Shown here one piece after another: positions 3,077-54,537 of a stretch of DNA of 64,000 nucleotides. The notes under the pieces were generated by a model. That model was not told where the DNA came from. It worked only from the letters and a program-made list of their open reading frames with translations, and made no database searches. A program made the position numbers and the translations under genes. Position 1 is the first letter of the stretch; the number at the start of each line of letters is the position of its first letter. Origin of the DNA: a virus; IMG/VR virus record IMGVR_UViG_3300045988_115474. One strand, 5' to 3'.

Positions 3077-3811
3077 ATGAAAAAGGTCGTTAGTCCGTGT
3101 TTCTGCAAGGTCTACACCAGAAGCGGCAATGAAGCGACTGCGCGGGCATTCTGCGAAATCTGCTTTGAGGAGGGCAAACTCAGTATCCATGGCGTGATCG
3201 GCCCTCTGCGCAGCGGTAACTGCCGTGGCGGTGCTGGTCAGTGTGTTGATGCAATCCGTGAAGGCCGCCCCTGCGATGAATGGACTCAGGAAATGCTCGA
3301 CAAGTTCTGCTCCATCTGGGACGAGTGGCATTTGAACGATATGCGTCCGTACTGCAAGCACCAAAAGGAGCTTGGCTGGGATAAGCTGGCCGTCACTCCT
3401 GTCACTCTGTACCACTATCGGCTGAACAGCAAAACCCTCCGGCGGAAGAAATCCATTAAGAAAAGCTCGTGGAAGATGCTCTGCGATGGCATGACCGCAA
3501 CTCTTAGCGATGACCAGATCGAAGTTGCCAAACTGCCGTACAGTATCACGCTTCCGCATGAAATCTCCGGCGATGCGGCTCTGTACTATGAGCCGCAGAA
3601 ATCGCTCTATCCCGGAATGACCGGCGCGACCGAAACGAAGACCCTCGGCTGGCTATACCCCGATGAGCACCCCGATGGCATCCTCGGTAAGCCTTGCCCG
3701 GTCTGCGGCTACCAGTATGGCCACGCATGGCAGACCGAAGAAGTTCCGCAGGAAGTGATCGACTGGCTGTTTGCACTGCCTGACACACCTGTCAAGCCTG
3801 CGTGGGTGTGA
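3077..3811 (+). CDS. hypothetical Cys-rich protein with GC content clearly above its neighbours
   Basis: ORF-track ORF; strong RBS; N-terminus CFCKVYTRSGNEATARAFCEICFEEGK...CRGGAGQCVDAIREGRPCDEW; by-eye GC about 55% versus about 40% locally. Confidence 0.6.
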   Translation: MKKVVSPCFCKVYTRSGNEATARAFCEICFEEGKLSIHGVIGPLRSGNCRGGAGQCVDAIREGRPCDEWTQEMLDKFCSIWDEWHLNDMRPYCKHQKELGWDKLAVTPVTLYHYRLNSKTLRRKKSIKKSSWKMLCDGMTATLSDDQIEVAKLPYSITLPHEISGDAALYYEPQKSLYPGMTGATETKTLGWLYPDEHPDGILGKPCPVCGYQYGHAWQTEEVPQEVIDWLFALPDTPVKPAWV

Positions 3812-3845
3812 TTATAAGTTGTTGTTGTTGTAATGAGGTGAAAAG

Positions 3846-4085
3846 ATGATTATTGATTCAATTCTTGATCGCCGGAATGGCTATCCTTACAACGCTCACG
3901 AATTTTACAACGATATCAGAGATTATGAGCGTCTAGGTGTTGGTACGCACGGCGAAGATATTTCTATCGCGATGGACTACGGTGATAACCGTGATGTGCA
4001 GCGTGCGCTGTGTCAGTACATCCAGCGCAATGGATACCCGGCAGATATTGAGGACTACATAAGAAGTCAAGTCTGGGTGGTATAA
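3846..4085 (+). CDS. hypothetical protein
   Basis: ORF-track ORF; GAGGTGAAAAGATG RBS. Confidence 0.5.
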   Translation: MIIDSILDRRNGYPYNAHEFYNDIRDYERLGVGTHGEDISIAMDYGDNRDVQRALCQYIQRNGYPADIEDYIRSQVWVV

Positions 4086-4175
4086 GCAGCAGATGCTAGG
4101 TGATTAGCGGTACTAGGGCAGACATAACCGCTACCAGAATGCGAAAGCATAAAAATATAAAAAGGAGCGATTGAT

Positions 4176-4391
4176 ATGGAAACAATGTACGACCGCATCA
4201 AGCGAATGGATAAGCATGAGCTTGCTGAGTTTATCTATGTTGTTTATCAAGTTGGTGTTAAAGATGGTAAACAGAATCTTTGTGATTCTCCTATGGGATT
4301 TTTTGGTTGCTGTTACTTCCTTAATGATAACGTAAAAGTATGGATGCCGAATGATAAGCCTAAAGATTTTTGTGATGCTTGGAATATCTAA
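4176..4391 (+). CDS. hypothetical protein
   Basis: ORF-track ORF; AAAAGGAGCGATTGATATG RBS. Confidence 0.5.
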   Translation: METMYDRIKRMDKHELAEFIYVVYQVGVKDGKQNLCDSPMGFFGCCYFLNDNVKVWMPNDKPKDFCDAWNI

Positions 4392-5913: not shown

Positions 5914-6085
5914 AAAGAATATCGTTCTCGCAGCTCTTTCTTTCTATCGGCGTAAGCTGATGGATCAGAGTGTTTCGTTCCTTAGAGCTGGTAATCACGA
6001 GGATGCAAAGCAGTCAACGATGGAAGCGGCCAACGTGAATGCGTTGGTGATTAAGTTTACAAGAGAAAAGGAGTTTGCAATATGA
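5900..6085 (+). CDS. hypothetical protein
   Basis: ORF-track ORF; its ATGA overlaps the upstream stop (translational coupling). Confidence 0.45.
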   Translation: MTNTEKNIVLAALSFYRRKLMDQSVSFLRAGNHEDAKQSTMEAANVNALVIKFTREKEFAI

Positions 6086-6315
6086 CCGATCCTTGCCGTT
6101 ACTGTGTGGCACCGGAGCGTTATCCTGGTTGTCATGACCATTGTGAAAAGCTGAAGGCTCATCGTGAAAGTGACGAGTATAAGAAGCTGTGTGAATACAA
6201 AGAAAAGTATTTCAGAAACAATATGCCGAAAAATACGGTAGCAATCTATTATGATATGCGTCGTAAGAAGCATAAAGGTTTACATATGATGGGCTATAAA
6301 GGAATGGGTGTTTAA
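6082..6315 (+). CDS. hypothetical Cys/His-rich small protein
   Basis: ORF-track ORF; AAAAGGAGTTTGCAATATG RBS; CRYCVAPERYPGCHDHCEK motif. Confidence 0.5.
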   Translation: MTDPCRYCVAPERYPGCHDHCEKLKAHRESDEYKKLCEYKEKYFRNNMPKNTVAIYYDMRRKKHKGLHMMGYKGMGV

Positions 6316-6586
6316 TGTGAAATATTGTATTTCTTGTGCAAATACTGGATGCCATTTTAATGGCGATAGAGGAATGGATATAAATCGTTGTCCTCAGTAC
6401 ATTGAAAACGACAAAGAATATAAGTGGGACGCTGGTTTATGCGCTGAAGATACGTGTGAAAGCACTGTCTTGCTTACTATGGCAGAAAAACGTGCTGTCG
6501 ATAAATTCATTTCCCAACTGCATCAGGAGGGATATTGCGGTTTCGTTTGGATTGATGACAAACCGATTGAATTTTATGGAGTGTGA
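6308..6586 (+). CDS. hypothetical Cys-rich protein
   Basis: ORF-track ORF overlapping the upstream stop; contains CISCANTGCHFNGD. Confidence 0.45.
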   Translation: MFNVKYCISCANTGCHFNGDRGMDINRCPQYIENDKEYKWDAGLCAEDTCESTVLLTMAEKRAVDKFISQLHQEGYCGFVWIDDKPIEFYGV

Positions 6587-6590
6587 TAAA

Positions 6591-6812
6591 ATGTGGGATT
6601 TAGTTGAAAATGAATATTCTAAAAAATATAGAATTGGGTGCGCAACCTTTTTTCGTGACAAACAATTAAAAACAGCAATGGTTATGTATAAATATAATGG
6701 CCGTAGCATTATGTTTTGCTATTCCGAGTACGATAATAAGATTCTATCTGACGGTGATAAAGACGAAATTGAGATGACAATCAAAAAGAAACTCAACTTT
6801 TGGAAGGATTAA
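6591..6812 (+). CDS. hypothetical protein, MWDL-family paralog 1
   Basis: In frame with ORF-track 6402-6812; ATG 6591 after GGAGTGTGATAAA; starts MWDLVENEYSKKYRIG. Confidence 0.5.
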   Translation: MWDLVENEYSKKYRIGCATFFRDKQLKTAMVMYKYNGRSIMFCYSEYDNKILSDGDKDEIEMTIKKKLNFWKD

Positions 6813-6814
6813 CT

Positions 6815-7051
6815 ATGTGGGATTTAATGGGTAACAATTATTCAGAAGTATACGGTATTGGATATGCTTTACTGAATGGAATTTCAGCTGGGTTTTATGT
6901 GAGTGTCATGTACAAGGATCTTGGAGATGAAATTTACTTCTATTATCTTGACAATGCTCCTTACGGAAAACTTGATGATAGTACCAAAAATAAAATTGAG
7001 GATATTATCCGTGATGACCTTAACAAGCGTCATATCTTTGGGGAGGACTGA
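6815..7051 (+). CDS. hypothetical protein, MWDL-family paralog 2
   Basis: In frame with ORF-track 6800-7051; ATG 6815 after TGGAAGGATTAACT; starts MWDLMGNNYSEVYGIG. Confidence 0.5.
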   Translation: MWDLMGNNYSEVYGIGYALLNGISAGFYVSVMYKDLGDEIYFYYLDNAPYGKLDDSTKNKIEDIIRDDLNKRHIFGED

Positions 7052-7053
7052 TT

Positions 7054-7302
7054 ATGTGGGATTTAAGAGAAGTTCATGCACTGCACGATGGTGATGGCTG
7101 GGTTTGGAATGAATCTTTCCATCACAAGAATGTGTTCGTAGAAGAGAATGAAGATCCAAAAGAAATCTTTTGGCAGGAATGTCAGCTGTTCTTCCTTCAG
7201 GATTATTTGAACAAGTGTGAGATTGTGGATGACAGTAATATTCTGGAACTTCAGCTGAAAGATTCCGGTGAATCAGTTCTCGCTATGATGATTGCAGAGT
7301 AA
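7054..7302 (+). CDS. hypothetical protein, MWDL-family paralog 3
   Basis: ORF-track ORF; GGGGAGGACTGATTATG; starts MWDLREVH. Confidence 0.5.
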   Translation: MWDLREVHALHDGDGWVWNESFHHKNVFVEENEDPKEIFWQECQLFFLQDYLNKCEIVDDSNILELQLKDSGESVLAMMIAE

Positions 7303-7320
7303 GAGTAAAGGAGAATGAAT

Positions 7321-7581
7321 ATGTTGCTTTTTAATGACGTTCTGGACGACTGTGCAGTAATTGTTAAGGATGATAATGGCAACAGTAGAGTTATTTCTGG
7401 CAGTGTTGATTCCATGCTTTATGACTGGTGGCACGAATGTAATTATGTGGCAAGTAATGACTCTTTGGTTGTTTATGCAGCTTGTTTTGGAGTGGAAGTG
7501 AAATGCAAAACATTCGGAGAGTATATGGAAATGATTGATAGAATTGCTGGAAGTTGCGACGGAATGGAAAGAGGAGAATGA
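7321..7581 (+). CDS. hypothetical protein; paralog of the 10647-10892 gene
   Basis: In frame with ORF-track 7315-7581; ATG 7321 after AAAGGAGAATGAAT. The C-terminus VKCKTFGEYMEMIDRIAGSCDG matches KMKCKTFKELMDMLEKIVADCC of the 10647 gene. Confidence 0.5.
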   Translation: MLLFNDVLDDCAVIVKDDNGNSRVISGSVDSMLYDWWHECNYVASNDSLVVYAACFGVEVKCKTFGEYMEMIDRIAGSCDGMERGE

Positions 7582-7584
7582 ATC

Positions 7585-7857
7585 ATGACACGGTTTTATC
7601 TTAATGCGGGTGCTCTTGGCCGTTGGATGCACCAGAATAAAGCACAATATACTGGTGCTTATGTTGAAGGTGTTTTGGTCGATAGCTTTGTTGTTGAAAC
7701 AAAGCGTGGTGTTGCAGCCATTTACGAACACGCTCTGAATGAGTGGACAAGCAACTATTATGTTGAGTTTACCGATTATAAGAAAGGCTTTAAGAATGGC
7801 GAGGTCGATAAGATTTGGTCTGATTGGTACGCTTTCGAAGAAAAGGAAAGTGCATAA
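7585..7857 (+). CDS. hypothetical protein
   Basis: ORF-track ORF; AGAGGAGAATGAATCATG RBS. Confidence 0.5.
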   Translation: MTRFYLNAGALGRWMHQNKAQYTGAYVEGVLVDSFVVETKRGVAAIYEHALNEWTSNYYVEFTDYKKGFKNGEVDKIWSDWYAFEEKESA

Positions 7858-7870
7858 GAGGTGAGTAAAT

Positions 7871-8128
7871 ATGGATAAAGATAAAAAGATTTTTGAAATT
7901 GATACGGCAATCGGAAAGCTAGTTATTCGTGAAAATTGGGACCCTGACTATCCTGGTGTGAGCGTTTATTTTAAGCGACCAGATGGGGCAGAGATTAACA
8001 TATCTGATACGGAAGTTGATAACGAAACAGGCGATGTAAATGTTTTTGTATGGGATGACCCTAACAACGAGGATTATTCAGAAATGACAACGATTAGCAG
8101 AGAAGAACTTCTTAATGAAGAAGATTGA
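7871..8128 (+). CDS. hypothetical acidic protein; paralog of the 11603-11848 gene
   Basis: ORF-track ORF. FEIDTAIGKLVIRENWDPDYPGVSVYFKRPDGAEINIS aligns with FEIDTPIGKIVAEGFAEPYPEIVIYLKRNDGETINLS of the 11603 gene. Confidence 0.5.
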   Translation: MDKDKKIFEIDTAIGKLVIRENWDPDYPGVSVYFKRPDGAEINISDTEVDNETGDVNVFVWDDPNNEDYSEMTTISREELLNEED

Positions 8129-22831: not shown

Positions 22832-22863
22832 AGAAAATAGTATTTGAATGGAGAATGATAACA

Positions 22864-23445
22864 ATGTCTGATTTCAAGAAATTTCGTGCACTGCTGCAGG
22901 ACCACTTCAATGAGATGGTGAAGGGCGAAAACCCTCTGTTTATCACCGATGCAGACGAGGATGAACTGTACAATCTGTATCTCGACAGCTTCCCGGCTGG
23001 CACGAATGAGTTGTTCCGCAAGCGCCGTGAATATGATTGCTCCTGCTGCCGCCGTTTTGTAAAGAATATCGGTAAGCTGGTGGCGTTTGATGCAAATCAC
23101 AATCTAGTTTCTATTTGGGATTTTGATGCCAAGTCCGACAAGTATCAGCCAGTCGTTGATGCGCTGGCCGATTACGTGAAGAGCCGTACAATTGTGAATC
23201 CGTACTTCGTCAGCCGCAATATGATCGGTTCTGGCAATATGTTCGGCACTGAGATGAACTTCGAGTACGACGAAAACCATAAAGATGTACGCACTTGGGA
23301 TCATTTCGCAGTCAAGATTCCGCAGCGTTTCATTATCAGCGGAGATGACCAGCTGTCCGGCGTTGGGTTCTCTGAGACGAAACATGATTCCTTTGTTGTC
23401 AAGGTTCAGGGCGCTACTGAGCGGGTTATGAAAGTTGTTGTTTAA
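22864..23445 (+). CDS. hypothetical protein
   Basis: In frame with ORF-track 22855-23445; ATG 22864 sits 9 nt after TGGAGAA. Confidence 0.5.
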   Translation: MSDFKKFRALLQDHFNEMVKGENPLFITDADEDELYNLYLDSFPAGTNELFRKRREYDCSCCRRFVKNIGKLVAFDANHNLVSIWDFDAKSDKYQPVVDALADYVKSRTIVNPYFVSRNMIGSGNMFGTEMNFEYDENHKDVRTWDHFAVKIPQRFIISGDDQLSGVGFSETKHDSFVVKVQGATERVMKVVV

Positions 23446-23459
23446 GAGGAGAAATTATT

Positions 23460-23843
23460 ATGGAAAAGAATCTGTTTGAAATTGCAACCCGTAATCGCTA
23501 TCGCTTCAACTATAAGGGTATTATGACTGTTGAAGATCTGTGGGATCTGAGTGTCGAGGCACTAGATGCGATTTTTAAGACCCTGAATCGTCAGAAGAAG
23601 ACCGCAGACGAAGACTCCTTGCTGGCTGTTAAGAGTGCCGAAGATACCGAACTGGCAAACAAGATTGAGCTGGTCAAGTATATCGTGTCTGTCAAGCTGG
23701 CTGAATCTGAGGCTCGTGTGGATGCAGCCGAGAAGAAGGCGCAGCGCGATAAGATTATGAAGATTGTGGCAAAGAAGAAGGACAAGGAGCTGGAAGATAT
23801 GGACGTAGACCAGCTGATGAAGAAGCTGGAAGAGTTGAACTAA
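23460..23843 (+). CDS. hypothetical protein with Lys/Glu-rich helical C-terminus
   Basis: ORF-track ORF; AGAGGAGAAATTATTATG RBS. Confidence 0.5.
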   Translation: MEKNLFEIATRNRYRFNYKGIMTVEDLWDLSVEALDAIFKTLNRQKKTADEDSLLAVKSAEDTELANKIELVKYIVSVKLAESEARVDAAEKKAQRDKIMKIVAKKKDKELEDMDVDQLMKKLEELN

Positions 23844-23914: not shown

Positions 23915-26125
23915 ATGAGAACTTTGCTTCTTTTCCGTGGAGCACCCGGATGCGGGAAATCCACCTATATTAAAGAGCATGATCTGGAAAAGTATACGCT
24001 TAGTGCCGATACGATTCGCCTTATGTGTCAGGGTGGTCAGGAAACCCCAGCTGGCACAATGGAAATCTCTCCTCAGAACGATGATGTTGTCTGGGATATG
24101 CTCTTTAAACTGTTGGAGGTTCGGATGTCTCACGGTGAATTTACCGTGATTGATGCAACGAATTCCAAGACGGTCGAAATGAATCGTTATAAGAATCTTG
24201 CAAAACAGTATCGTTATCGGATGTATGTTATTAACATGACGGACCTTCCGATCGAGGAATGCAAACGAAGAAACGCTCAGAGAGAATGGCTGAAGCGAGT
24301 TCCTGAAGCGGCTATTGATAAGATGTACGCTCGGTTTGCTACTCAAAAAGTTCCTTCTGGCGTGACAGTTCTTCCTTCTACTACGGATGTGATGTCCGAT
24401 TTGAACTACTGTCCGAATGACTTCAACCAGTGGAAGAAGATTCATGTCATCGGTGATGTTCATGGCTGTTATACTTGTTTAAGTGAATACCTTGGTGAGA
24501 TGAAGGACGACGAACTTTATATCTTCGTTGGTGATTATCTCGATCGTGGCATTGAAAACGTTGAGGTATTCAAGTTCTTGTGTGATGTTGTAAATAACAA
24601 CCGCAAGAATGTGATCCTTTTGGAAGGGAATCACGAGCGTTGGCTGAACAAGTGGGGGCATGATGAACCGGTTCAGAGTGAAGAGTTTGCAAACTACACT
24701 CGTCCGCAGCTCTTTAAAGCCGGTATTGACAAGAACACTGCTCGTAAGATCTATTCCAGAGTTGGCCAATGTGCCTACTTTGAGTATGATGGGAAGCAGT
24801 ATTTCGTGAGCCACGGTGGTTTGAGTTATCTGCCTTATTTTCTTCCTTTTGTATCTGCTGACCAGATGATTAAAGGTGTGGGTCGCTATCCTGATATGCT
24901 AACCGTGGCTGAGTCTTGGGAAAAATCGATGCCGGATAGCTACATTCAGATCTTCGGTCATCGAAATGTGCAGGATGTTCCTATTGATATGGGGCATCGG
25001 TGTTACAACCTCGAAGGAAAAATCGAGTTTGGTGGATATCTCCGTTGCGTGGAACTTGAACACGGTCAGTCAATCAAATGTGTAGAAACAAAGAACGATG
25101 TGTTCCGAAAAGAGGAGCCAAAGACTGAAACTGCCGTTGAAATGAAAACTGAGTTCGATAACGCAGAACTTGTCAGTAAGATGCGTCAAAGCAAATATGT
25201 GTTTGAGAAGCGATTCGGAGATATTTCTTCTTTCAACTTCTCTCGTGAAGCATTTTATAAGAAGCACTGGGATGAGGTTTCTACCAAAGCAAGGGGATTG
25301 TTCATTAACACAAAGACGAATAAGATTGTAGCTCGAAGCTATGATAAGTTCTTTGCGGTCGATGAGCGGAATGAAACGAGAATTGGAAACCTACAGAACA
25401 CTTTGAAGTTCCCGGTGACTGCATATCTGAAGGAAAACGGATTTCTTGGCATTGTCTCATATGATGCAGAACAGGATGGTCTGTTCATTGCAAGTAAATC
25501 CACTCCTGAAGGGCCTTTTGCAGATATGTTCCGAAAGATTCTCATGGATACGACTTCTGATGAAGACCGTAAGAATCTGAAGGAAGTTGCAAAAGAGAAT
25601 GGTTCCATCATTTTTGAGGTGATTGATCCTATAAATGATGCTCATATCATCGAATACAAGAAACCGCACATTGTTTTGCTGGATATTGTTGCGAATGATA
25701 TGAACTTCAGTGTGATGGATTACGATGATCTGAAGCGTGTTGCTGAAAAGTGTCATTTGCAGATTAAGGAGAAGGTTAAGATCTTTGAGTGCTGGAGTGA
25801 ATTCTATCCTTGGTATGAAGAAGTCATGAATGAGAATTATCTGTACCATGGCATCGAGCATATTGAAGGCTTTGTTTTGAGAGATAACAACAATTTTATG
25901 TTTAAGCTGAAGCTTCCTTATTATAAGCACTGGAAGTTCTTGCGTGGTGTTATGCAGAGCGTTCAGAAGCGTGGCTATTATGAAAATACCGCAAAGTTGT
26001 TTACTGCTGAGGATAACCTGTTCTATGGTTGGATGCGTGAGCAACGAGAGAAAGATCAGGAATCTTTCTGCAAGAAGGGTATTATTCAGTTACGGAATGA
26101 ATTCTATGAGAATCGGCACGAATAA
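23915..26125 (+). CDS. polynucleotide kinase / phosphatase / ligase (bacterial Pnkp-like RNA end-healing and sealing enzyme)
   Basis: N-terminus: P-loop kinase FRGAPGCGKST. Middle: calcineurin-like phosphoesterase motifs HVIGDVHGC, GDYLDRG and GNHER. C-terminus: nucleotidyltransferase/ligase-like motifs KENGFLG (motif I, K-x-N-G), EGFVLRD (IV) and FKLKLP (V). RBS AAAAGGGGAGAAAACAATG. Confidence 0.75.
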   Translation: MRTLLLFRGAPGCGKSTYIKEHDLEKYTLSADTIRLMCQGGQETPAGTMEISPQNDDVVWDMLFKLLEVRMSHGEFTVIDATNSKTVEMNRYKNLAKQYRYRMYVINMTDLPIEECKRRNAQREWLKRVPEAAIDKMYARFATQKVPSGVTVLPSTTDVMSDLNYCPNDFNQWKKIHVIGDVHGCYTCLSEYLGEMKDDELYIFVGDYLDRGIENVEVFKFLCDVVNNNRKNVILLEGNHERWLNKWGHDEPVQSEEFANYTRPQLFKAGIDKNTARKIYSRVGQCAYFEYDGKQYFVSHGGLSYLPYFLPFVSADQMIKGVGRYPDMLTVAESWEKSMPDSYIQIFGHRNVQDVPIDMGHRCYNLEGKIEFGGYLRCVELEHGQSIKCVETKNDVFRKEEPKTETAVEMKTEFDNAELVSKMRQSKYVFEKRFGDISSFNFSREAFYKKHWDEVSTKARGLFINTKTNKIVARSYDKFFAVDERNETRIGNLQNTLKFPVTAYLKENGFLGIVSYDAEQDGLFIASKSTPEGPFADMFRKILMDTTSDEDRKNLKEVAKENGSIIFEVIDPINDAHIIEYKKPHIVLLDIVANDMNFSVMDYDDLKRVAEKCHLQIKEKVKIFECWSEFYPWYEEVMNENYLYHGIEHIEGFVLRDNNNFMFKLKLPYYKHWKFLRGVMQSVQKRGYYENTAKLFTAEDNLFYGWMREQREKDQESFCKKGIIQLRNEFYENRHE

Positions 26126-26190: not shown

Positions 26191-26266
26191 GGCCCTATGG
26201 CGGAATTAGGCATACGCAACAAGCTCAAACCTTGTAAAATTCTCAGTTCAAATCTGAGTAGGGCTA
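26191..26266 (+). tRNA. tRNA with anticodon CAA in a class I (short variable arm) fold; isotype unclear (Leu-like anticodon without a long arm)
   Basis: Manual fold: acceptor GGCCCTA/TAGGGCT (G1-U72), D arm GCGG..ACGC, anticodon stem ACAAG/CTTGT, loop CTCAAAC, T arm CTCAG-TTCAAAT-CTGAG, A73 and encoded CCA. Confidence 0.5.
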
Positions 26267-26348
26267 CCAACCCATTTGCAGATGGGTAAGTGCTAGAATA
26301 TTGGCAAATTGGAAAGACGGTTGACTGCTGGACAGACAGCTTTGATAT

Positions 26349-26431
26349 GCTACCGTGGTGGAATGGCAGACACCGGAGACTTAAAATCTCCTGTCGGCAA
26401 CGACGTGCCCGTTCAAGTCGGGTCGGTAGCA
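26349..26431 (+). tRNA. tRNA-Leu (anticodon TAA), class II
   Basis: Acceptor GCTACCG/CGGTAGC, anticodon stem GGAGA/TCTCC with loop CTTAAAA, 15-nt variable arm with GTCG/CGAC stem, T arm GCCCG-TTCAAGT-CGGGT, A73. Confidence 0.75.
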
Positions 26432-26438
26432 CTAATAT

Positions 26439-26511
26439 CCGGGTGTAGCTCAGTTGGAAGAGCGCCTGCTTTGGGAGCAGGAGGCCGCAGGATCATGACC
26501 TGTCACTCGGA
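26439..26511 (+). tRNA. tRNA-Pro (anticodon TGG)
   Basis: C1-G72 acceptor (CCGGGTG/CACTCGG), D arm GCTC-AGTTGGAA-GAGC, anticodon stem CCTGC/GCAGG with loop TTTGGGA, T arm GCAGG-ATCATGA-CCTGT (A54/U58 variant), A73 and CCA. Confidence 0.65.
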
Positions 26512-26602
26512 CCAGCCCGAAAGGGTATGTAGAATTTTTCATTCACATTATTCCCAGCCCTCTGGAAACAGAGCAGTGTGGCATAGCAAGCTGGGTAGAT
26601 TA

Positions 26603-26674
26603 CGAGGATTAGCCAAGCGGATAAGGCAGTGGAATTTGACTCCACGACCGCAGGTTCGATTCCTGCACACTCGA
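26603..26674 (+). tRNA. tRNA-Gln-like (anticodon TTG) with two acceptor-stem mismatches
   Basis: D arm GCCAAGCGGATAAGGC, anticodon stem GTGGA/TCCAC with loop ATTTGAC, T arm GCAGG-TTCGATT-CCTGC. Acceptor CGAGGAT/ACACTCG pairs at only 5 of 7 positions. Confidence 0.5.
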
Positions 26675-26681
26675 TTTATAT

Positions 26682-26763
26682 GCGGGTATGGTGTAACTGG
26701 CAGCCACGCGGATTTTAGGTGTCCGTGCCGAAAGGCGTGAGGGATCGTGCCCCTCTACCCGTA
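26682..26763 (+). tRNA. tRNA-Leu (anticodon TAG), class II
   Basis: Acceptor GCGGGTA/TACCCGT, anticodon stem CGGAT/GTCCG with loop TTTAGGT, 13-nt variable arm (GCC-GAAA-GGC), T arm GAGGG-ATCGTGC-CCCTC, A73 and CCA. Confidence 0.7.
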
Positions 26764-26869
26764 CCACGGTCATAGAATGGTTGCGTACCGTTTGTTGATC
26801 TCCTTTGGCCACTATTATTCCCAGCTCGCTCGTAAGAGTGCAGTAGTGCTTTGTAAACTGGGTGATTGT

Positions 26870-26941
26870 GCAGTTATTGTGTAGTTGGTAAGCACGCTTG
26901 CTGATGAAGTAAGAGGACGAGTTCAAAACTCATTGACTGCA
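26870..26941 (+). tRNA. tRNA-like element (possible degenerate tRNA or pseudogene)
   Basis: Acceptor GCAGTTA/TGACTGC pairs fully and the D arm is good (GTGT..GCAC), but the anticodon loop TGATGAA lacks U33, the T stem has a mismatch and the variable region is 3 nt. Confidence 0.3.
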
Positions 26942-27144
26942 AAATATGAAATCAGTTGTTCTAGCTCGTTCGTGGATTGGCCGTACATTGGCGACCGGAA
27001 AGACGTCATACCGGTAAAGGACGTCAAGCCAGACAAGAAGAGAAATAAGGTGTAAGCCGACTAGCTATCGGATAAATACTCTTCGGTTCGCCAGAAAACT
27101 AGAATGTAAAACGAATGGTTGGCTGTTTCTGATTTCATTTATAT

Positions 27145-27217
27145 GCGACTGTAGTTCAATTGGCAGAGCGTCAGATTTCCAATCTGAATGTTGCGGGATC
27201 GTGCCCCGTCAGTCGCT
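27145..27217 (+). tRNA. tRNA-Gly (anticodon TCC)
   Basis: Perfect acceptor GCGACTG/CAGTCGC, D arm GTTC..GAGC, anticodon stem TCAGA/TCTGA with loop TTTCCAA, T arm GCGGG-ATCGTGC-CCCGT, U73 and CCA. Confidence 0.75.
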
Positions 27218-27351
27218 CCACACGCAGCCCCTTACGCTGCACCGGTTGCTCAGAGCCGAAAGAAACCTATATGTTACGACATGGTTGCCAAGAGTGATCA
27301 TATTGGAACGCGACGTAGCTTGGATAGTGAGAATTAAATTCTGAGGTATAC

Positions 27352-27420
27352 TGCTGGATAGCTTAATGGTAAAAGCGCTCGGAAACGCCGAGAGATAAGG
27401 TTCAATTCCTTCACTGGCAT
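27352..27420 (+). tRNA. degenerate tRNA-like element (anticodon loop of only 5 nt)
   Basis: Acceptor TGCTGGA/ACTGGCA (6 of 7 pairs including G-U), D arm GCTT-AATGGTAA-AAGC, T arm TAAGG-TTCAATT-CCTTC; the anticodon arm CTCGG-AAACG-CCGAG is too short to be functional. Confidence 0.25.
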
Positions 27421-27447
27421 CACGCCGATGAAAGTCGGCGTTTGCAT

Positions 27448-27521
27448 GGGATAGTAGCTCAGTTGGTCAGAGCTGGCGGCTCATAACCGCTTGGTCGCGA
27501 GTTCAAATCTTGCCTGTCCCA
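27448..27521 (+). tRNA. tRNA-Met (anticodon CAT), elongator or Ile2-like (G1-C72 paired, so not an initiator)
   Basis: Acceptor GGGATAG/CTGTCCC, D arm GCTC-AGTTGGTCA-GAGC, anticodon stem GGCGG/CCGCT with loop CTCATAA, T arm GCGAG-TTCAAAT-CTTGC, A73 and CCA. Confidence 0.8.
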
Positions 27522-27627
27522 CCAGCCCGATAGGGCATACATAAAATCTGCTAGAACTTTTGTTTTATAAGCGAATTTATAATATGACGTTAATACGTCT
27601 ATTATTTTTCGCTCATTTTTAAAGTTT

Positions 27628-49407: not shown

Positions 49408-50199
49408 ATGGTAGTTAAACTGATTACACATACTCCTGATCCTGAAAAGGTGGTAGCTGCCGCCGCAAAGTTGTGCTACTCCAATTCGAGTATTCAGGAT
49501 TTGATGAATGGACTGACCGATGAAAAGGTCGATGAGTTTCTGAATCGGCTTTCTAGCCTTGGCCACGCCAGTCCTACGGAGCATGTGACTTTTACTTTTG
49601 GGATTGAAGGTGTAAGCCGGGCTTTGCTTGCCCAGATTACCAGGCATCGCATTGCATCATTTAGTGTACAAAGTCAGCGCTATGTGCGAATGAATAATGC
49701 GGAAATCATCATTCCTGATGTTATCGACGATGATAGCGAAGCAAGAGAGGTATTTGAACAGGCAATTCAGACTGCTGAATACTCCTATAAGCACCTGTGC
49801 CAGATTCTTGAGGACAAGATTACTGAGGAGCTGATGATTGCTGATTCTCGTTTGACTGAGAAAAAGGCACGCGCAAAAGCATCCAAGATTGCAAACGAGA
49901 ATGCACGTTCTGTTCTTCCAAATGCTTGCTCTACAAAGATGATTGTTACAATGAACGCTCGTTCGTTGAATAATTTCTTTAACCTGCGTTGTTGTGAGCG
50001 AGCGCAGCCGGAAATCAGGGAACTTGCAACTGAGATGCTGAAGCTTGTCTATCCGATTGCTCCTCATCTGTTTAAGTGTGCTGGCCCCAACTGCTGTGGT
50101 AACGGTTGTACTGAGGGTATGATGTCTTGTGGTAAGTTCCACGAGATCCGTGATAAATACGACAAACTGAAACAGGAGGCATTAAATGCAAACACTTGA
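49408..50199 (+). CDS. thyX: flavin-dependent thymidylate synthase ThyX
   Basis: ThyX signature RHRxxSxxxxSQRY (ITRHRIASFSVQSQRY); 263 aa; TAAGGAGAGTTGAATG RBS. Confidence 0.8.
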   Translation: MVVKLITHTPDPEKVVAAAAKLCYSNSSIQDLMNGLTDEKVDEFLNRLSSLGHASPTEHVTFTFGIEGVSRALLAQITRHRIASFSVQSQRYVRMNNAEIIIPDVIDDDSEAREVFEQAIQTAEYSYKHLCQILEDKITEELMIADSRLTEKKARAKASKIANENARSVLPNACSTKMIVTMNARSLNNFFNLRCCERAQPEIRELATEMLKLVYPIAPHLFKCAGPNCCGNGCTEGMMSCGKFHEIRDKYDKLKQEALNANT

Positions 50200-50680
50200 C
50201 GAAATTAAGAAGAATGTCGAACACCCGTCCCATTACGGCGGTGCAGACAATCCCTACGAGGCCATCAAAGTACTGCGAGAGTGGCAACTGGACAAGGATG
50301 CTTATCTTTGGAATGTTGGTAAGTATCTGAGCCGGGCAGGGCACAAAGATGGTAATTCTCAGCTTCAAGATTTGACGAAGGCACGTTGGTATTTGGACTA
50401 TAAAATCCGACTTTTAGAGGAACAGCAGAAGATTACTGAAAGTGTCGTAGATACGCTAAAGAAGATTCATGATGAGGCCAATGATAAGCTGACTACGATG
50501 TCGGATTACGGAGATGTCTACATTCCTACTATTGGAAAGACAGTAAAAGAATGCGTTCAGTATGTTCTTCGTCATGCAAAGCCCGACTATACGGATGATT
50601 TGGTTTTCCGTCCAGAAATCCATACTCCAAACATCGAGACTGCCGTGGTTCCTGATTGTGCCGATGAGGTCAAGTTTTAA
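50186..50680 (+). CDS. DUF3310-like phage protein
   Basis: HPSHYGGADNPYEAIKV...NVGKYLSRAG...LTKARWYLDY follows the DUF3310 pattern (HY...IE..., KY..R.G.K, KA.wYL) seen in many phages. Confidence 0.5.
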   Translation: MQTLDEIKKNVEHPSHYGGADNPYEAIKVLREWQLDKDAYLWNVGKYLSRAGHKDGNSQLQDLTKARWYLDYKIRLLEEQQKITESVVDTLKKIHDEANDKLTTMSDYGDVYIPTIGKTVKECVQYVLRHAKPDYTDDLVFRPEIHTPNIETAVVPDCADEVKF

Positions 50681-50805
50681 GAGGTTTACATAAATGAGAA
50701 TGAGATACAACTGGGAAGAACCATTTGTGGCATTTGCCCTGTTTGTTGCAATGTTGATTTTTGGCTTTACTAAATTTGTTTTAAGATAATCAAGGAGAAA
50801 AATAC

Positions 50806-52329
50806 ATGAATATGATGTTTATTGCAATTCCTGTCGTTATTGTCCTTCTGGTCGCCTTTGCATTTACTTGCTACAAGAAGGCTCCTCCTACTCAGGCAAT
50901 CGTCGTGACAGGTTTTGGACTGTCTAAGCCGAAAGTTATCTGTGGCCGTGGCGTGTTCGTCCTTCCGATTATTCAGCGAGCTGACCGTCTGAATATGCGA
51001 CTGCTCAAGATTGATGTCAAGACTCCTGAAACCGGTGTCAAGACTAAAGAGGGTGTTTCTCTGTGGCTGGACTCTGTTGTTACTGTTCAGGTCTACTCTG
51101 AAAACTCTACTGTAACTGATGATGAGATTAAGAGCGCTGGTTGTGAGGATGCAAAGACTTATATTAGTGCTCGTCAGCAGGCTGCTATTTCCAACTTCCT
51201 TGGCATGAGTGAAGATGGCATTAACGAGAAGATTAACGATGTCCTTCAGGGCAATCTGCGAGAGATTGTTTCTGAGATGACTGTCAACGATATCCTGACC
51301 AATCGTAAACAGATGGCAATTTCTGTTGTTGAGAATGCTCGTCCTGATTTAGCAAAGATGGGTCTGGAAGTTGTTACTTTCAATGTTCAGGATATCAAGG
51401 ATGCTATTGATGCCCAGGGTCATAATCATGGTGTTATTGAGGCAATTGGTGTTCAGCAGGAAGAGCTGGTGAAGAAGCAGGCAGAGATTGCTAAGGCCGA
51501 AGCCGCTCGTGATATTGCTCGTGCTAAGGCAGATACTGCTCGTGAATCAAATGAAAAGGAAATCGAGTCCAAGACTGCTATTGCACAGCGCAACAATGAG
51601 TATCTTTTGACACAGGCTGCTCTGAAGGCAGAGGCTGATAAGGCAAATGCTGATGCAGAAGCTGCTGGTGAGATTCAAACGAATCTGCGTGATAAGGAAA
51701 TCAAGGAAGCTGAGGCTGACGCAGCTATTGCAAAGCAGAAGAAGATGGTTGAGTTGGCCGCTCAGGAAGCAGAAGTTCGTCAGCAGAAGCTGGATGCGGA
51801 GATTCGCAAGCAGGCAGATGCTGATCTGTATAAGCGTCAGAAAGAAGCTGAAGCAAAAAAGTACGAGGCAGAGCGTTTTGCAGAATCTGCGAAGTTTGCC
51901 AAGGAGCAAGAAGCCGAAGGTATTCGTATGGTTGGTATGGCCGAGGCAGATGCTATCAAGCAGAAAGGTCTTGCTGAGGCAGAAGCTATGCTGAAGAAAG
52001 CTGAGGCTTACAAGCAGTATAACGGTGCAGCCATGGGTGAGATGATTATCAAGATCCTGCCTAACATCGCAGAACAGATTGCAAAACCTCTGGCGTCTAT
52101 TGATAAGGTTTCTATCATTGGTAGCAATGCAAATGGTGTTTCTGAAATTTCCGCAAATGTCCCAGCAGTTATGGCACAGACCTTTGAAGCAGTCCATGAA
52201 GCAACTGGTATTGATATGAAGGAGATTGTCCGTGCCAATAGTTACGACGCAAAGGTCACAAAGAATGTGAATCTGGTGAGTGATTCTACTATTACATCCG
52301 ACAAGGGAGAGGCACAGGACGCAGAGTAA
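50806..52329 (+). CDS. flotillin / SPFH (band-7) domain membrane protein
   Basis: N-terminal TM helix (MNMMFIAIPVVIVLLVAFAFTCY) followed by an SPFH core (IVVTGFGLSKPKV...RLNMRLLKIDVK...) and a long Ala/Glu-rich coiled coil with EAEA/AEAEA repeats typical of flotillins; AAGGAGAAAAATACATG RBS. Confidence 0.75.
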   Translation: MNMMFIAIPVVIVLLVAFAFTCYKKAPPTQAIVVTGFGLSKPKVICGRGVFVLPIIQRADRLNMRLLKIDVKTPETGVKTKEGVSLWLDSVVTVQVYSENSTVTDDEIKSAGCEDAKTYISARQQAAISNFLGMSEDGINEKINDVLQGNLREIVSEMTVNDILTNRKQMAISVVENARPDLAKMGLEVVTFNVQDIKDAIDAQGHNHGVIEAIGVQQEELVKKQAEIAKAEAARDIARAKADTARESNEKEIESKTAIAQRNNEYLLTQAALKAEADKANADAEAAGEIQTNLRDKEIKEAEADAAIAKQKKMVELAAQEAEVRQQKLDAEIRKQADADLYKRQKEAEAKKYEAERFAESAKFAKEQEAEGIRMVGMAEADAIKQKGLAEAEAMLKKAEAYKQYNGAAMGEMIIKILPNIAEQIAKPLASIDKVSIIGSNANGVSEISANVPAVMAQTFEAVHEATGIDMKEIVRANSYDAKVTKNVNLVSDSTITSDKGEAQDAE

Positions 52330-52341
52330 AGGAGTGATTGC

Positions 52342-54537
52342 ATGGAATATGTGATTAAACGAGATGGAACGAAAGTTCCTTTTGACAAAAGTAAGATTGT
52401 AAATGCAATTGAGAAGGCGATGACGAATACGACTGGAGGAGTTGATTCTCGCGTGTCTAACGCTATTGCAGACTACATTGCCGACATCCCTGATACGATG
52501 TCTGTAGAGCAGATTCAGGATGTAGTTATTGACCAGTTGAAAAATAGCCCTCTTTCGGATGTGGCTGACGCTTATAGTCACTGGCGTATTCTTCGGCAGG
52601 AGATTCGTAAGAAGCAGCGAGCATATGGCGAAATTCTTTCCATCTGTGATGTAGATAATGAGAAGGTCAAGCAGGAGAACAGCAACAAAAATCCTGTTGT
52701 GAATAGTGTACAGCGTGACTATATGGCTGGCGAAGTCTCCAAAGATCTGAGCTTTAATCTGCTTCTTCCGAAAGATATTGTGGACACTCACTATGATGGT
52801 CGAATTCACTTCCACGATTCCGACTACTTTGCCCAGCACATGTTTAACTGCTCGTTAGTCAATCTGGAAGATATGCTGCAAAACGGCACTGTGATTTCTG
52901 GTACAGGAATCGACAAACCACATAGTTTCTCTACAGCGTGCAATATTGCAACCCAGATTATTGCACAGGTTGCTTCAAATCAGTATGGTGGTCAGAGTAT
53001 TACTCTATCTCATCTAGCTCCCTTCGTTGATGTCTCTCGAAAGAAGATTGCGAGTGAAGTCCATGAGGAGTTTTACGACATGATTCAAAACAATGAGATT
53101 GACAAGATGCCAAATCAGGAGACTATCAATCGAATTGTGGAGAAGCGTTTACATAAAGAAATCGTTGCAGGTGTTCAGACTATTCAGTATCAGGTTATTA
53201 CTTTGATGACCACCAACGGGCAGGCTCCTTTTATTACCATTTTTATGTACCTGGATGAAGTTCCTGAAGGCCAGACCCGTGATGACCTTGCAATTATCAT
53301 TGAAGAAGTCCTTCGTCAGCGCATTAAAGGCGTGAAGAATGAGACTGGTGCATGGATTACTCCGGCTTTCCCAAAGCTGATTTATGTGCTGGAAGAAGAC
53401 AACATTCGAGATAATTCTAAGTATTACTATCTGACTGAACTAGCAGCTAAATGTACGGCCAAGAGGTTTGTACCTGACTACATTTCTGAGAAGAAGATGT
53501 TGGAATACAAAGGTGCTTGCTACCCCTGTATGGGCTGCCGCAGCTTCCTGACTCCTGATCGAACCACCGAGAATATCTCTGGTGCAATGAATTGGGAGAA
53601 GGGCCACAAGTATTATGGTCGCTTTAATGCTGGTGTTGTCACCATAAATCTGGTAGATGTTGCTTGTAGCTCTAAGAAGGATATCTCTGAGTTTTGGAAA
53701 ATTTTTGATGAGCGTCTTGAACTGTGCCATCGAGCACTTCAGATTCGGTATAAGCGATTGATGGGTACGCCTTCTGATGTGAGTCCAATTCATTTTCAGC
53801 ATGGTGCAATCGCACGTTTGAAGAAGGGCGAGAAGATTGATAAATTGCTGTTTGACGGATATGCAACCATCAGTTTAGGTTACGCAGGGCTGTATGAATG
53901 TGTAAAGTACATGACTGGTAAGAGCCATACTGATGATGAAGCAAAACCTTTTGCTCTTGAGATTATGCAGCACATGAACGACAAGTGCAACGAGTGGAAA
54001 AAGGCCGAGAACATGGACTACTCCCTCTACGGCACCCCGCTGGAATCCACCACCTACAAGTTTGCCAAGTGCCTGCAAAAGCGGTTTGGCATCATTCCAG
54101 ATGTAACCGACCATGATTACATCACAAATAGCTATCATGTCGTGGTTCGTGAGCATATTGATGCATTCAAGAAGCTGAAGTTTGAGTCTGAGTTTCAGCA
54201 GTTGTCTCCCGGAGGAGCGATTTCTTATATTGAATGCCCGAACATGACCAACAACATCCCCGCTGTAATGAGTGTCATCAAATACATTTATGACACCATT
54301 ATTTATGCAGAGCTGAATATCAAGTCTGATTATTGTCAGGTTTGTGGCTATGATGGGGAAATCAAGATCGTTGAAGACAATGGCAAGCTTGTCTGGGAAT
54401 GCCCGAATTGTGGAAACCGTGACCAGAACAAGCTGAACGTTGCCCGCCGTACTTGCGGTTTTATTGGCACTCAGTTCTGGAATCAGGGACGCACCCAGGA
54501 GATTCGTGACCGAGTGGTTCATCTGAGCGACAACTAA
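52342..54537 (+). CDS. nrdD: anaerobic ribonucleoside-triphosphate reductase (class III RNR) NrdD
   Basis: 731 aa; N-terminal ATP-cone-like region; Zn ribbon CQVCGYDGE...CPNCG; C-terminal glycyl-radical motif RRTCGFIGTQ. Confidence 0.85.
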   Translation: MEYVIKRDGTKVPFDKSKIVNAIEKAMTNTTGGVDSRVSNAIADYIADIPDTMSVEQIQDVVIDQLKNSPLSDVADAYSHWRILRQEIRKKQRAYGEILSICDVDNEKVKQENSNKNPVVNSVQRDYMAGEVSKDLSFNLLLPKDIVDTHYDGRIHFHDSDYFAQHMFNCSLVNLEDMLQNGTVISGTGIDKPHSFSTACNIATQIIAQVASNQYGGQSITLSHLAPFVDVSRKKIASEVHEEFYDMIQNNEIDKMPNQETINRIVEKRLHKEIVAGVQTIQYQVITLMTTNGQAPFITIFMYLDEVPEGQTRDDLAIIIEEVLRQRIKGVKNETGAWITPAFPKLIYVLEEDNIRDNSKYYYLTELAAKCTAKRFVPDYISEKKMLEYKGACYPCMGCRSFLTPDRTTENISGAMNWEKGHKYYGRFNAGVVTINLVDVACSSKKDISEFWKIFDERLELCHRALQIRYKRLMGTPSDVSPIHFQHGAIARLKKGEKIDKLLFDGYATISLGYAGLYECVKYMTGKSHTDDEAKPFALEIMQHMNDKCNEWKKAENMDYSLYGTPLESTTYKFAKCLQKRFGIIPDVTDHDYITNSYHVVVREHIDAFKKLKFESEFQQLSPGGAISYIECPNMTNNIPAVMSVIKYIYDTIIYAELNIKSDYCQVCGYDGEIKIVEDNGKLVWECPNCGNRDQNKLNVARRTCGFIGTQFWNQGRTQEIRDRVVHLSDN

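Follow-up and report, generated by a model that had tools for sequence, protein, structure and literature searches.

The window analysed here, the whole 64,000-nucleotide stretch of IMG/VR virus record IMGVR_UViG_3300045988_115474, encodes at positions 50,806–52,329 a protein that is, with near certainty as judged from its sequence, a genuine full-length bacterial-type flotillin comprising a transmembrane (TM) anchor, an SPFH domain, a helical region and a flotillin C-terminal domain. Comparison of this gene across a population of related uncultured gut phages revealed that it is an optional accessory cargo of a phage recombination hotspot, where it alternates with a LemA-family gene paired with a second membrane protein (protein X), that it is fully ameliorated to phage composition, and that it is under strong purifying selection. 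Sequence similarity points to its acquisition from Subdoligranulum-like Oscillospiraceae or their relatives by a gut phage lineage with genomes of ~125–140 kb. SPFH/flotillin genes were annotated in phages before (e.g., in Gibbsiella phage GIB1 and in phage csAssE-Sib), and a flotillin gene as such would not surprise a specialist; what is new is the population-level picture of a host-derived, ameliorated, constrained and optional flotillin alternating with LemA and X. With respect to its role, we tentatively favor, at somewhat less than an even chance, a host-derived SPFH scaffold that would be made together with the replication genes and would stabilize or reorganize the host membrane during infection.

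Identity and Architecture of the Phage Flotillin

In each of the sequence comparisons performed, the phage protein behaved as a member of the flotillin family. An earlier note on this DNA, based on the letters alone, had described an N-terminal membrane helix, an SPFH/band-7 core and a strong ribosome-binding site (RBS) of the gene's own, and all three of these features were confirmed (Table 1). A scan of 19-residue Kyte-Doolittle means (segments > 1.6 counted) singled out residues 4–22, immediately followed by YKK, as the sole strongly hydrophobic segment of the protein, and the alignment places a hydrophobic N-terminus at the same position in all bacterial and phage homologues. A profile search, which the note had named as its own decisive test, found both an SPFH core (Band_7) and a flotillin domain (Flot), each above its Pfam gathering threshold. 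The protein is collinear with its bacterial homologues, with no truncation and no extra domain. A search against the defense-protein models of PADLOC-DB 2.0 yielded no family at E ≤ 0.01.

The same assignment follows from comparison with well-characterized flotillins. The NCBIfam FloT model NF058507 aligned over positions 6–474 of 477 (E 2.6e-76), in keeping with the architecture shared with Bacillus subtilis FloT (YuaG), but the score of 257.6 bits vs. an equivalog cut-off of 700 identifies a protein of the same family rather than an NCBI FloT orthologue. A sequence search of the PDB (E ≤ 0.01) returned flotillin-1 and flotillin-2 chains only, with no stomatin, prohibitin or HflK/C among the matches. 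Residues 27–490 matched the human flotillin-1/-2 complex (PDB 9l3g and 9bq2; E 8.9e-49 and 8.9e-42), and in the case of flotillin-1 (E 8.9e-49) they aligned with chain residues 6–435, the match taking in the SPFH domain, the long helices and the C-terminal domain. The human proteins differ in missing a ~20-aa insertion within the SPFH domain, and eukaryotic flotillins are attached to the membrane by acylation and a hairpin rather than by an N-terminal TM helix; the phage protein might form a multimeric dome like theirs.

The ~200-aa Ala/Glu-rich heptad region described in the note was upheld as to its composition and helical character, but not as to its heptads. Residues 216–410 (195 aa) contain 40.5% Ala plus Glu (vs. 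13.6% in the SPFH part), 29 EA/AE dipeptides and no proline. However, in a Fourier test over this region at periods of 3.5–3.67 hydrophobic periodicity did not exceed that of shuffled sequences, the observed power being reached by 857–1993 of 2000 shuffles depending on the segment and residue set, so that a canonical heptad coiled coil is not demonstrable by this admittedly crude test. Heptad periodicity is not strictly required of the flotillin family. An AlphaFold2 model, computed from a shallow alignment (17 sequences, all ≥ 69% identical), contains two long helices (residues 209–302 and 314–416) with a local pLDDT (predicted local distance difference test) of 70–87; over the entire protein the mean pLDDT was 50.4 and the predicted template modeling score (pTM) 0.21, with the SPFH part below pLDDT 50.

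Two open reading frames (ORFs) overlapping the flotillin gene were considered as genes and rejected. An antisense ORF at 51547..52839 (−; 430 aa) and an ORF in the +2 frame at 51647..51994 (+; 115 aa) overlap the Ala/Glu-rich coding region, and the latter matches other loci only where the flotillin itself matches. Both look like by-products of repetitive GCN/GAR-rich codons.

Table 1. Coordinates of the flotillin gene, its product's domains, and the bordering elements of the slot in the window
Feature	Position	Strand	Basis and remarks
DUF3310 gene, left border of the slot	50186..50680	+	PF11753, 47.9 bits
Mini-ORF, 31 aa (29 aa from the second ATG), single-TM peptide	50694..50789	+	Start (RBS + MRYNW) common to LemA
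Flotillin RBS (AAGGAG), marking the left end of the flotillin cassette	50792..50797	+	8 nt 5' of the ATG
Flotillin gene	50806..52329	+	ATG start, 507 aa, TAA stop, no interruption
N-terminal TM anchor, residues 4–22, FIAIPVVIVLLVAFAFTCY	50815..50871	+	Kyte-Doolittle mean 2.83
SPFH/Band_7 domain, residues 25–233	50878..51504	+	PF01145, E 1.7e-19, 71 bits (cut-off 23.6)
Ala/Glu-rich helical region, residues 216–410 (195 aa)	51451..52035	+	Ala/Glu composition
Flotillin C-terminal domain, residues 375–442	51928..52131	+	PF15975, E 7.8e-08, 32.9 bits (cut-off 27)
RBS AGGAG of nrdD, right border of the slot	52330..52334	+	Sequence
NrdD gene, right border of the slot	52342..54537	+	PF13597, 631.7 bits

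Origin, Composition, and Selection

The flotillin occurs at 94–98% identity and in the same position on 19 IMG/VR contigs (up to 141 kb in length), and a search of a large protein database returned near-identical copies (95–98%) followed by many proteins at 73–79%. A close chromosomal relative (78% identity) is found in a Subdoligranulum variabile metagenome-assembled genome (SFKI01000016, our locus L022), where the surroundings are those of a bacterial chromosome, i.e., an amino-acid ABC transporter, a MatE pump, a two-component system and TrkAH; two more chromosomal copies (~75%) reside among glycoside hydrolases or thiamine genes. These bacterial flotillins are 87–91% identical to each other, are flanked by DNA of 54–61% GC, and have a GC content at third codon positions (GC3) of 0.73–0.88, while over the whole alignment the phage copy is 73–75% identical to them. 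The ~20-aa SPFH insertion is clade-specific, being common to the phage and the Subdoligranulum-type copies. The GC3 of the phage gene is 0.42, the same as in the neighboring phage genes. A host-like sequence combined with phage-like codon composition identifies a flotillin of host-lineage type that has long been resident in the phage.

The Subdoligranulum-type protein is among the closest known systems to which the phage flotillin may be compared. The two are 75–78% identical and collinear from the anchor to the C-terminus, but the former is chromosomal, housekeeping-like and GC3-rich (0.83), whereas the latter occupies an accessory slot. The likeness is uneven along the chain, with 86% identity in the SPFH part (residues 25–215), 68% in the C-terminal region and 48% in the TM anchor, so that the phage copy diverges most in the anchor, the C-terminal region and the tail. 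A yuaF/NfeD-type partner is absent from the phage slot: neither DUF3310 nor NrdD contains an NfeD domain, and the only intervening ORF encodes the 31-aa mini-ORF peptide. Likewise, no NfeD domain was found among the checked neighbors of three Subdoligranulum-type relatives (L022, L026, and L029).

Fourteen positions separate all phage from all bacterial copies. Outgroups mostly display the phage state at these positions, which indicates that it is the bacterial cluster that is derived, and none of the 14 could be polarized as a derived, phage-specific substitution. In a neighbor-joining tree three phage types (A, B, and C) form separate branches beside the bacterial cluster.

Selection on the phage gene is evident from a dN/dS of 0.044 among the 19 phage copies (143 pairs, dS up to 0.8). 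All 18 full-length copies are intact at 507 aa, and the flotillin is the most conserved gene of its neighborhood (94–98%), where NrdD, DUF3310, DNA ligase and ThyX are mosaic, with identities anywhere between 34 and 98%. Taken together, these three observations exclude a decaying passenger.

An Optional Cargo Slot Between DUF3310 and nrdD

The placement of the gene between a DUF3310 gene and nrdD, amid nucleotide-metabolism genes, had been pointed out in the note and was corroborated by the Pfam assignments of the neighbors. A search of viral contigs with NrdD in place of the flotillin recovered many sister phages with the ThyX-DUF3310-nrdD gene order, and the content of the slot was recorded in a census of 57 such syntenic loci. 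The slot contains a LemA-family gene followed by the gene of the 268-aa protein X in 35 of these loci, only a mini-ORF for a single-TM peptide of 29–31 aa (referred to as "empty") in 15, and the mini-ORF followed by the flotillin in the remaining 7. DUF3310 precedes the slot in 57 out of 60 syntenic loci, the other three having a DUF3310 match below 55%. One more locus (L010), which came from the flotillin scan and is not among the 57, carries LemA, X and the flotillin consecutively. All three slot states occur on several NrdD allele backgrounds, which indicates that the cargo is reshuffled by recombination. Since in sister phages the slot is either empty or filled with other membrane proteins, the flotillin represents a real but optional accessory gene of the phage.

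The slot states have their junction sequences in common. The left junction, GAGGTTTACATAAATGAGATACAACTGG, is the start of the mini-ORF as well as of LemA; both have the same RBS and begin with MRYNW (MRYNWKLP in LemA). The right junction, TAAAGGAGTGATTGCATGGAATATG, consists of the RBS and start of nrdD, with only 1–2 differences across the empty, LemA + X and flotillin states. The flotillin cassette itself starts at its own RBS, and the junction AAGGAGAAAA(A/G)TACATG precedes the flotillin both after the mini-ORF (as in the window) and after the gene of protein X (as in L010).

The most frequent cargo is the LemA + X pair (e.g., L110 3708–4989, with the LemA gene at 3708–4265; L010 6692–7988; L023 6158–7489), which in two contexts (L010 and L023) is physically linked to a flotillin. 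LemA was recognized by PF04011 (116.8 bits) and matches phrog_1383, a family labeled "virion structural protein"; protein X (~260–268 aa) has a TM segment at each end and matches phrog_3886 (unknown function) end to end. To our knowledge, no function has been established for LemA proteins. The mini-ORF is intact in 17 of the 19 flotillin loci, with 1-nt indels in the other two, and its product before the flotillin follows the pattern MRYNWEEPF.AFALFV.ML.FGF.KFVLR; in the "empty" slots a diverged allele, MRYNWEYPLVALMLLAMIMTFWFSKVVLGI, has the same length and hydrophobicity (e.g., L108 4896–4988). By its sequence, this putative peptide looks like a free-standing version or a remnant of the LemA membrane anchor.

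Flotillins in Other Viral Contexts

A profile-guided scan identified at least 201 IMG/VR stretches encoding flotillin relatives, which fall in several groups differing in GC (0.28–0.49), contig size and flotillin identity (34–98%) and are mostly large contigs; in one of these groups, with contigs of ~160 kb, the encoded protein passes both the Band_7 and Flot models. At the same time, only 10 of 50,697 GenBank phage records have any match, in all cases below 60% identity, and several of these records are short and unannotated. Hence the statement of the note that a phage copy is uncommon applies to GenBank phage records but not to gut viromes: phage flotillins are rare in deposited phage records and recurrent in large uncultured gut phages. 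Given its recurrence in many large gut phage contigs, the trait is of ecological relevance and no one-off.

Two further contexts may be described as phage-like based on low GC and on almost all called genes being on one strand and devoid of Pfam matches, with PHROG matches that are few and weak. In the first of them (L023, an unrelated 108-kb contig of GC 0.43), LemA (53% identity), X (39%), a 120-aa hydrophobic ORF with apparent TM segments and a flotillin (76%) follow each other in a row. In the second (L027), the flotillin is 75% identical to that of the window and 90–92% identical to those on IMG/VR contigs of 68–389 kb, the latter likeness being an additional reason for calling this context phage-like. 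Directly upstream of the L027 flotillin lies a gene for a 156-aa double-zinc-ribbon protein (7422–7892; PF18912, E 3.9e-07), preceded by a gene whose 449-aa product also contains a zinc ribbon (5971–7320); by description, the pair is reminiscent of YdjG from the pspA-ydjGHI operon of B. subtilis (PMC11237479).

Among described phages, the 151-kb phage csAssE-Sib provides a parallel. Its annotated 566-aa flotillin family protein (WOZ57345.1), in which both Band_7 and Flot were confirmed, is encoded directly downstream of an annotated TM protein and is surrounded by genes for a DnaB-like helicase, an exonuclease and a helicase; the SPFH parts of the two phage flotillins, however, are only 28% identical. 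The family phrog_200 (SPFH "lipoprotein") differs in that it matches residues 2–257 only, i.e., an SPFH domain without the flotillin half. For Gibbsiella phage GIB1, the authors considered the purpose of an SPFH/flotillin-type gene in a phage unclear (PMC13239085).

Two additional observations concern other genes on flotillin-bearing contigs. Homologues (~67 and ~47%) of two window ORFs without Pfam matches (22855–23445, 196 aa; 23460–23843, 127 aa), which in the window are 27 kb away from the flotillin, are found within 6 kb of a flotillin in a group of ~160-kb phage contigs of GC 0.35 (L077–L106, e.g., L081). Furthermore, two very large IMG/VR contigs, 3300023499_000220 (345,980 bp; L065/L172) and 3300029615_000411 (240,696 bp; L060/L173), encode a flotillin (76%) and an NrdD (66%) located ~66 kb apart, and may represent either jumbo phages distantly related to the phage of the window or misclassified bacterial DNA.

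Proposed Role and Alternative Explanations

The flotillin gene is part of one unbroken same-strand run with replication and nucleotide-metabolism genes. Between 48500 and 55500, we detected 10 promoter-like sites (vs. 13.0 expected from shuffles) and 7 terminator-like sites (vs. 4.5 in shuffles), neither count exceeding chance and no terminator lying between DUF3310, flotillin and nrdD, although such consensus scans provide only weak evidence for a host of this type. The gene therefore does not display the own promoter and terminator of a classical moron, which makes it probable that it would be co-transcribed with the replication and nucleotide-metabolism genes around it. The N-terminal helix would anchor the product in the host cytoplasmic membrane, and the KK following it would, by the positive-inside rule, leave the bulk of the protein in the cytoplasm. 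SPFH proteins oligomerize into cages or scaffolds on membranes, and by family resemblance the phage protein may do so on the inner leaflet, possibly mixed with the 75–78% identical flotillin of the host. Membrane microdomains, fluidity and integrity might thereby be supplemented or re-tuned, such that membrane functions would hold until programmed lysis. Bacterial flotillins are known to tune membrane microdomains, fluidity and membrane machineries (PMC7360373, PMC4312047), including control over membrane fluidity (PMC7360373), and phage lysis occurs measurably later in the presence of DynA, a membrane-stabilizing protein of the host (PMC8844932). A further argument for a membrane role is provided by the slot itself, which is membrane-themed, the flotillin alternating or being linked with LemA and a two-TM protein. 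As optional cargo of such a hotspot, the gene more plausibly has a general accessory role directed at the membrane than a role as a replication scaffold.

Several considerations weigh against the proposed membrane-stabilizing role. Changing cargo at a fixed position is also classically associated with conflict genes (superinfection exclusion, anti-defense) and favors the first of the alternatives discussed below. Most sister phages have no flotillin, indicating that the gene is dispensable for the basic phage cycle. The assignment of the host rests on the similarity of one protein, and the phage has 41% GC vs. 54–61% in those bacteria. The structural model (pLDDT 50) is too poor for checking the oligomerization surfaces. 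Finally, a literature search yielded no experiment, expression data or functional study on any phage flotillin, and nothing useful on LemA in connection with SPFH proteins. SPFH systems functionally tied to membrane damage control have been described in bacteria (PMC8581546, PMC11237479); they belong to the same superfamily, and in the second group they have the same architecture. The relation of the phage flotillin to them would be one of analogy rather than membership, as the slot and the adjoining genes, the part of the window scanned in this respect, encode no PspA, YdjG/H or NfeD.

The most probable of the alternatives, though rather unlikely in our estimate, is a function in conflict. 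The flotillin would be a moron-type weapon whose membrane cages either block or sequester the membrane components that incoming DNA requires, and so keep out superinfecting phages, or blunt abortive-infection effectors of the host that target the membrane; LemA + X would serve the same purpose by other means. An idea of this kind was raised already in the earlier note. In its favor are the presence of the gene in some phages and its absence or replacement in others at one fixed position, with the cargo reshuffled among NrdD alleles; the fact that every slot cargo protein is a membrane protein; and the recurrence of flotillins in viral contigs, mostly large, of several groups differing in GC and flotillin identity. 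On the other hand, genes of this type usually evolve fast, while the flotillin is the most conserved gene of its neighborhood and remains 75–78% identical to the housekeeping version of the host. Moreover, it matches no PADLOC defense model, and our literature search found no exclusion or anti-defense protein that is a flotillin.

A more elaborate version, which we consider improbable as a whole, would unite the flotillin, LemA + X and the mini TM peptide as interchangeable modules of a so far unrecognized phage toolkit for controlling the host cytoplasmic membrane, where cages formed together with the host flotillin would enclose host membrane proteins or immune effectors and thereby protect the infected cell from abortive infection or competing phages. 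If true, this would amount to a new class of membrane-compartment counter-defense or exclusion that is spread among large gut phages.

Host takeover appears decidedly improbable as well. According to this explanation, the phage flotillin would co-assemble with that of the host and perturb its microdomains in a dominant-negative or hijacking manner, shutting down microdomain-dependent cell-wall synthesis, secretion, signaling or FtsH-type proteolysis. In its favor are the 75–78% identity to the presumed host flotillin and the retention of all family-invariant residues, as well as the divergence, which is the highest among structured parts in the C-terminal region and the TM anchor (68 and 48% identity, vs. 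86% in SPFH). Work by Mielich-Suss from 2013 reportedly found disturbed division and shape in B. subtilis upon mere overproduction of flotillin. But the lack of phage-specific substitutions that could be polarized as derived at the 14 distinguishing positions speaks against it, and nothing sets this scenario apart from simple supplementation.

A membrane-attached scaffold (the main idea of the note), with cages recruiting replication or morphogenesis proteins of the phage, is very unlikely despite the location of the gene amid replication and nucleotide-metabolism genes both here and in csAssE-Sib. The same replication genes occur without a flotillin in most sister phages, so that the replication machinery does not rely on it; in addition, the neighbors of the flotillin in L023 and L027 are not replication genes, and the gene with which it alternates encodes LemA rather than a replication factor. 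The last explanation, a functionless passenger (host DNA picked up accidentally and now being lost), is hardly tenable, since the optional status of the gene in the population is the only feature in its favor and the low dN/dS (at dS up to 0.8) with 18 intact full-length copies, the complete amelioration to phage GC3 and the fact that several groups of viral contigs carry a flotillin independently all speak against it.

The roles of bacterial flotillins are still debated, and related gut phages differing at one slot constitute a natural experiment, in which a flotillin is kept under strong purifying selection and yet has stayed close to the host's own copy. The presence/absence series and the linkage of flotillin with LemA make the function of phage-borne, and perhaps of bacterial, flotillins directly testable. 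A comparison of sister phages could show what an extra SPFH scaffold is worth in terms of membrane stability, lysis timing, exclusion or counter-defense, and the same system could also shed light on LemA proteins.

The Host Phage and Other Genes of the Window

The window covers the genome arm for replication and nucleotide metabolism in an uncultured gut phage of ~125–140 kb. The phage setting assumed in the note is supported by the replication genes, the tRNAs and the 19 IMG/VR contigs with the same gene. With few exceptions the long ORFs lie on the + strand, and they include genes for a DNA polymerase (phrog_405), helicases, a primase, a RecJ-like exonuclease, a DNA ligase, ThyX, DUF3310 and NrdD, the ThyX and ligase genes being located further upstream of DUF3310. 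In a nucleotide search of the 45–60 kb and 28–46 kb parts of the window, as well as of L023 and L027, against the 50,697 GenBank phage records, no meaningful match was obtained.

Eight tRNA genes are arrayed beside a gene (23915–26125) for a 736-aa fusion protein resembling polynucleotide kinase, phosphatase and RNA ligase (phrog_8238, E 7.7e-226). The array (26191–27524) is directly 3' of the fusion gene, which suggests a tRNA-repair module next to the phage tRNAs. One of the tRNAs (26869–26942) was assigned by ARAGORN as His with the anticodon ATG, an unusual result that may be erroneous.

ThyX (49408–50199) exists in two alleles in the syntenic sister phages (L004, L013, L108, etc.), either ~96–99% or ~34% identical to that of the window, a difference that indicates in-place replacement of the whole gene. 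NrdD comprises 1024 rather than 731 aa in some sister phages (L010 9536–12610, L170 5001–8063). The additional ~290 aa are inserted after "...DTDYFVQHMHN", start with "CFKSNTRF..." and end with "...GGIVTGN" before "CDLVNLEDML", and by their sequence look like an intein.

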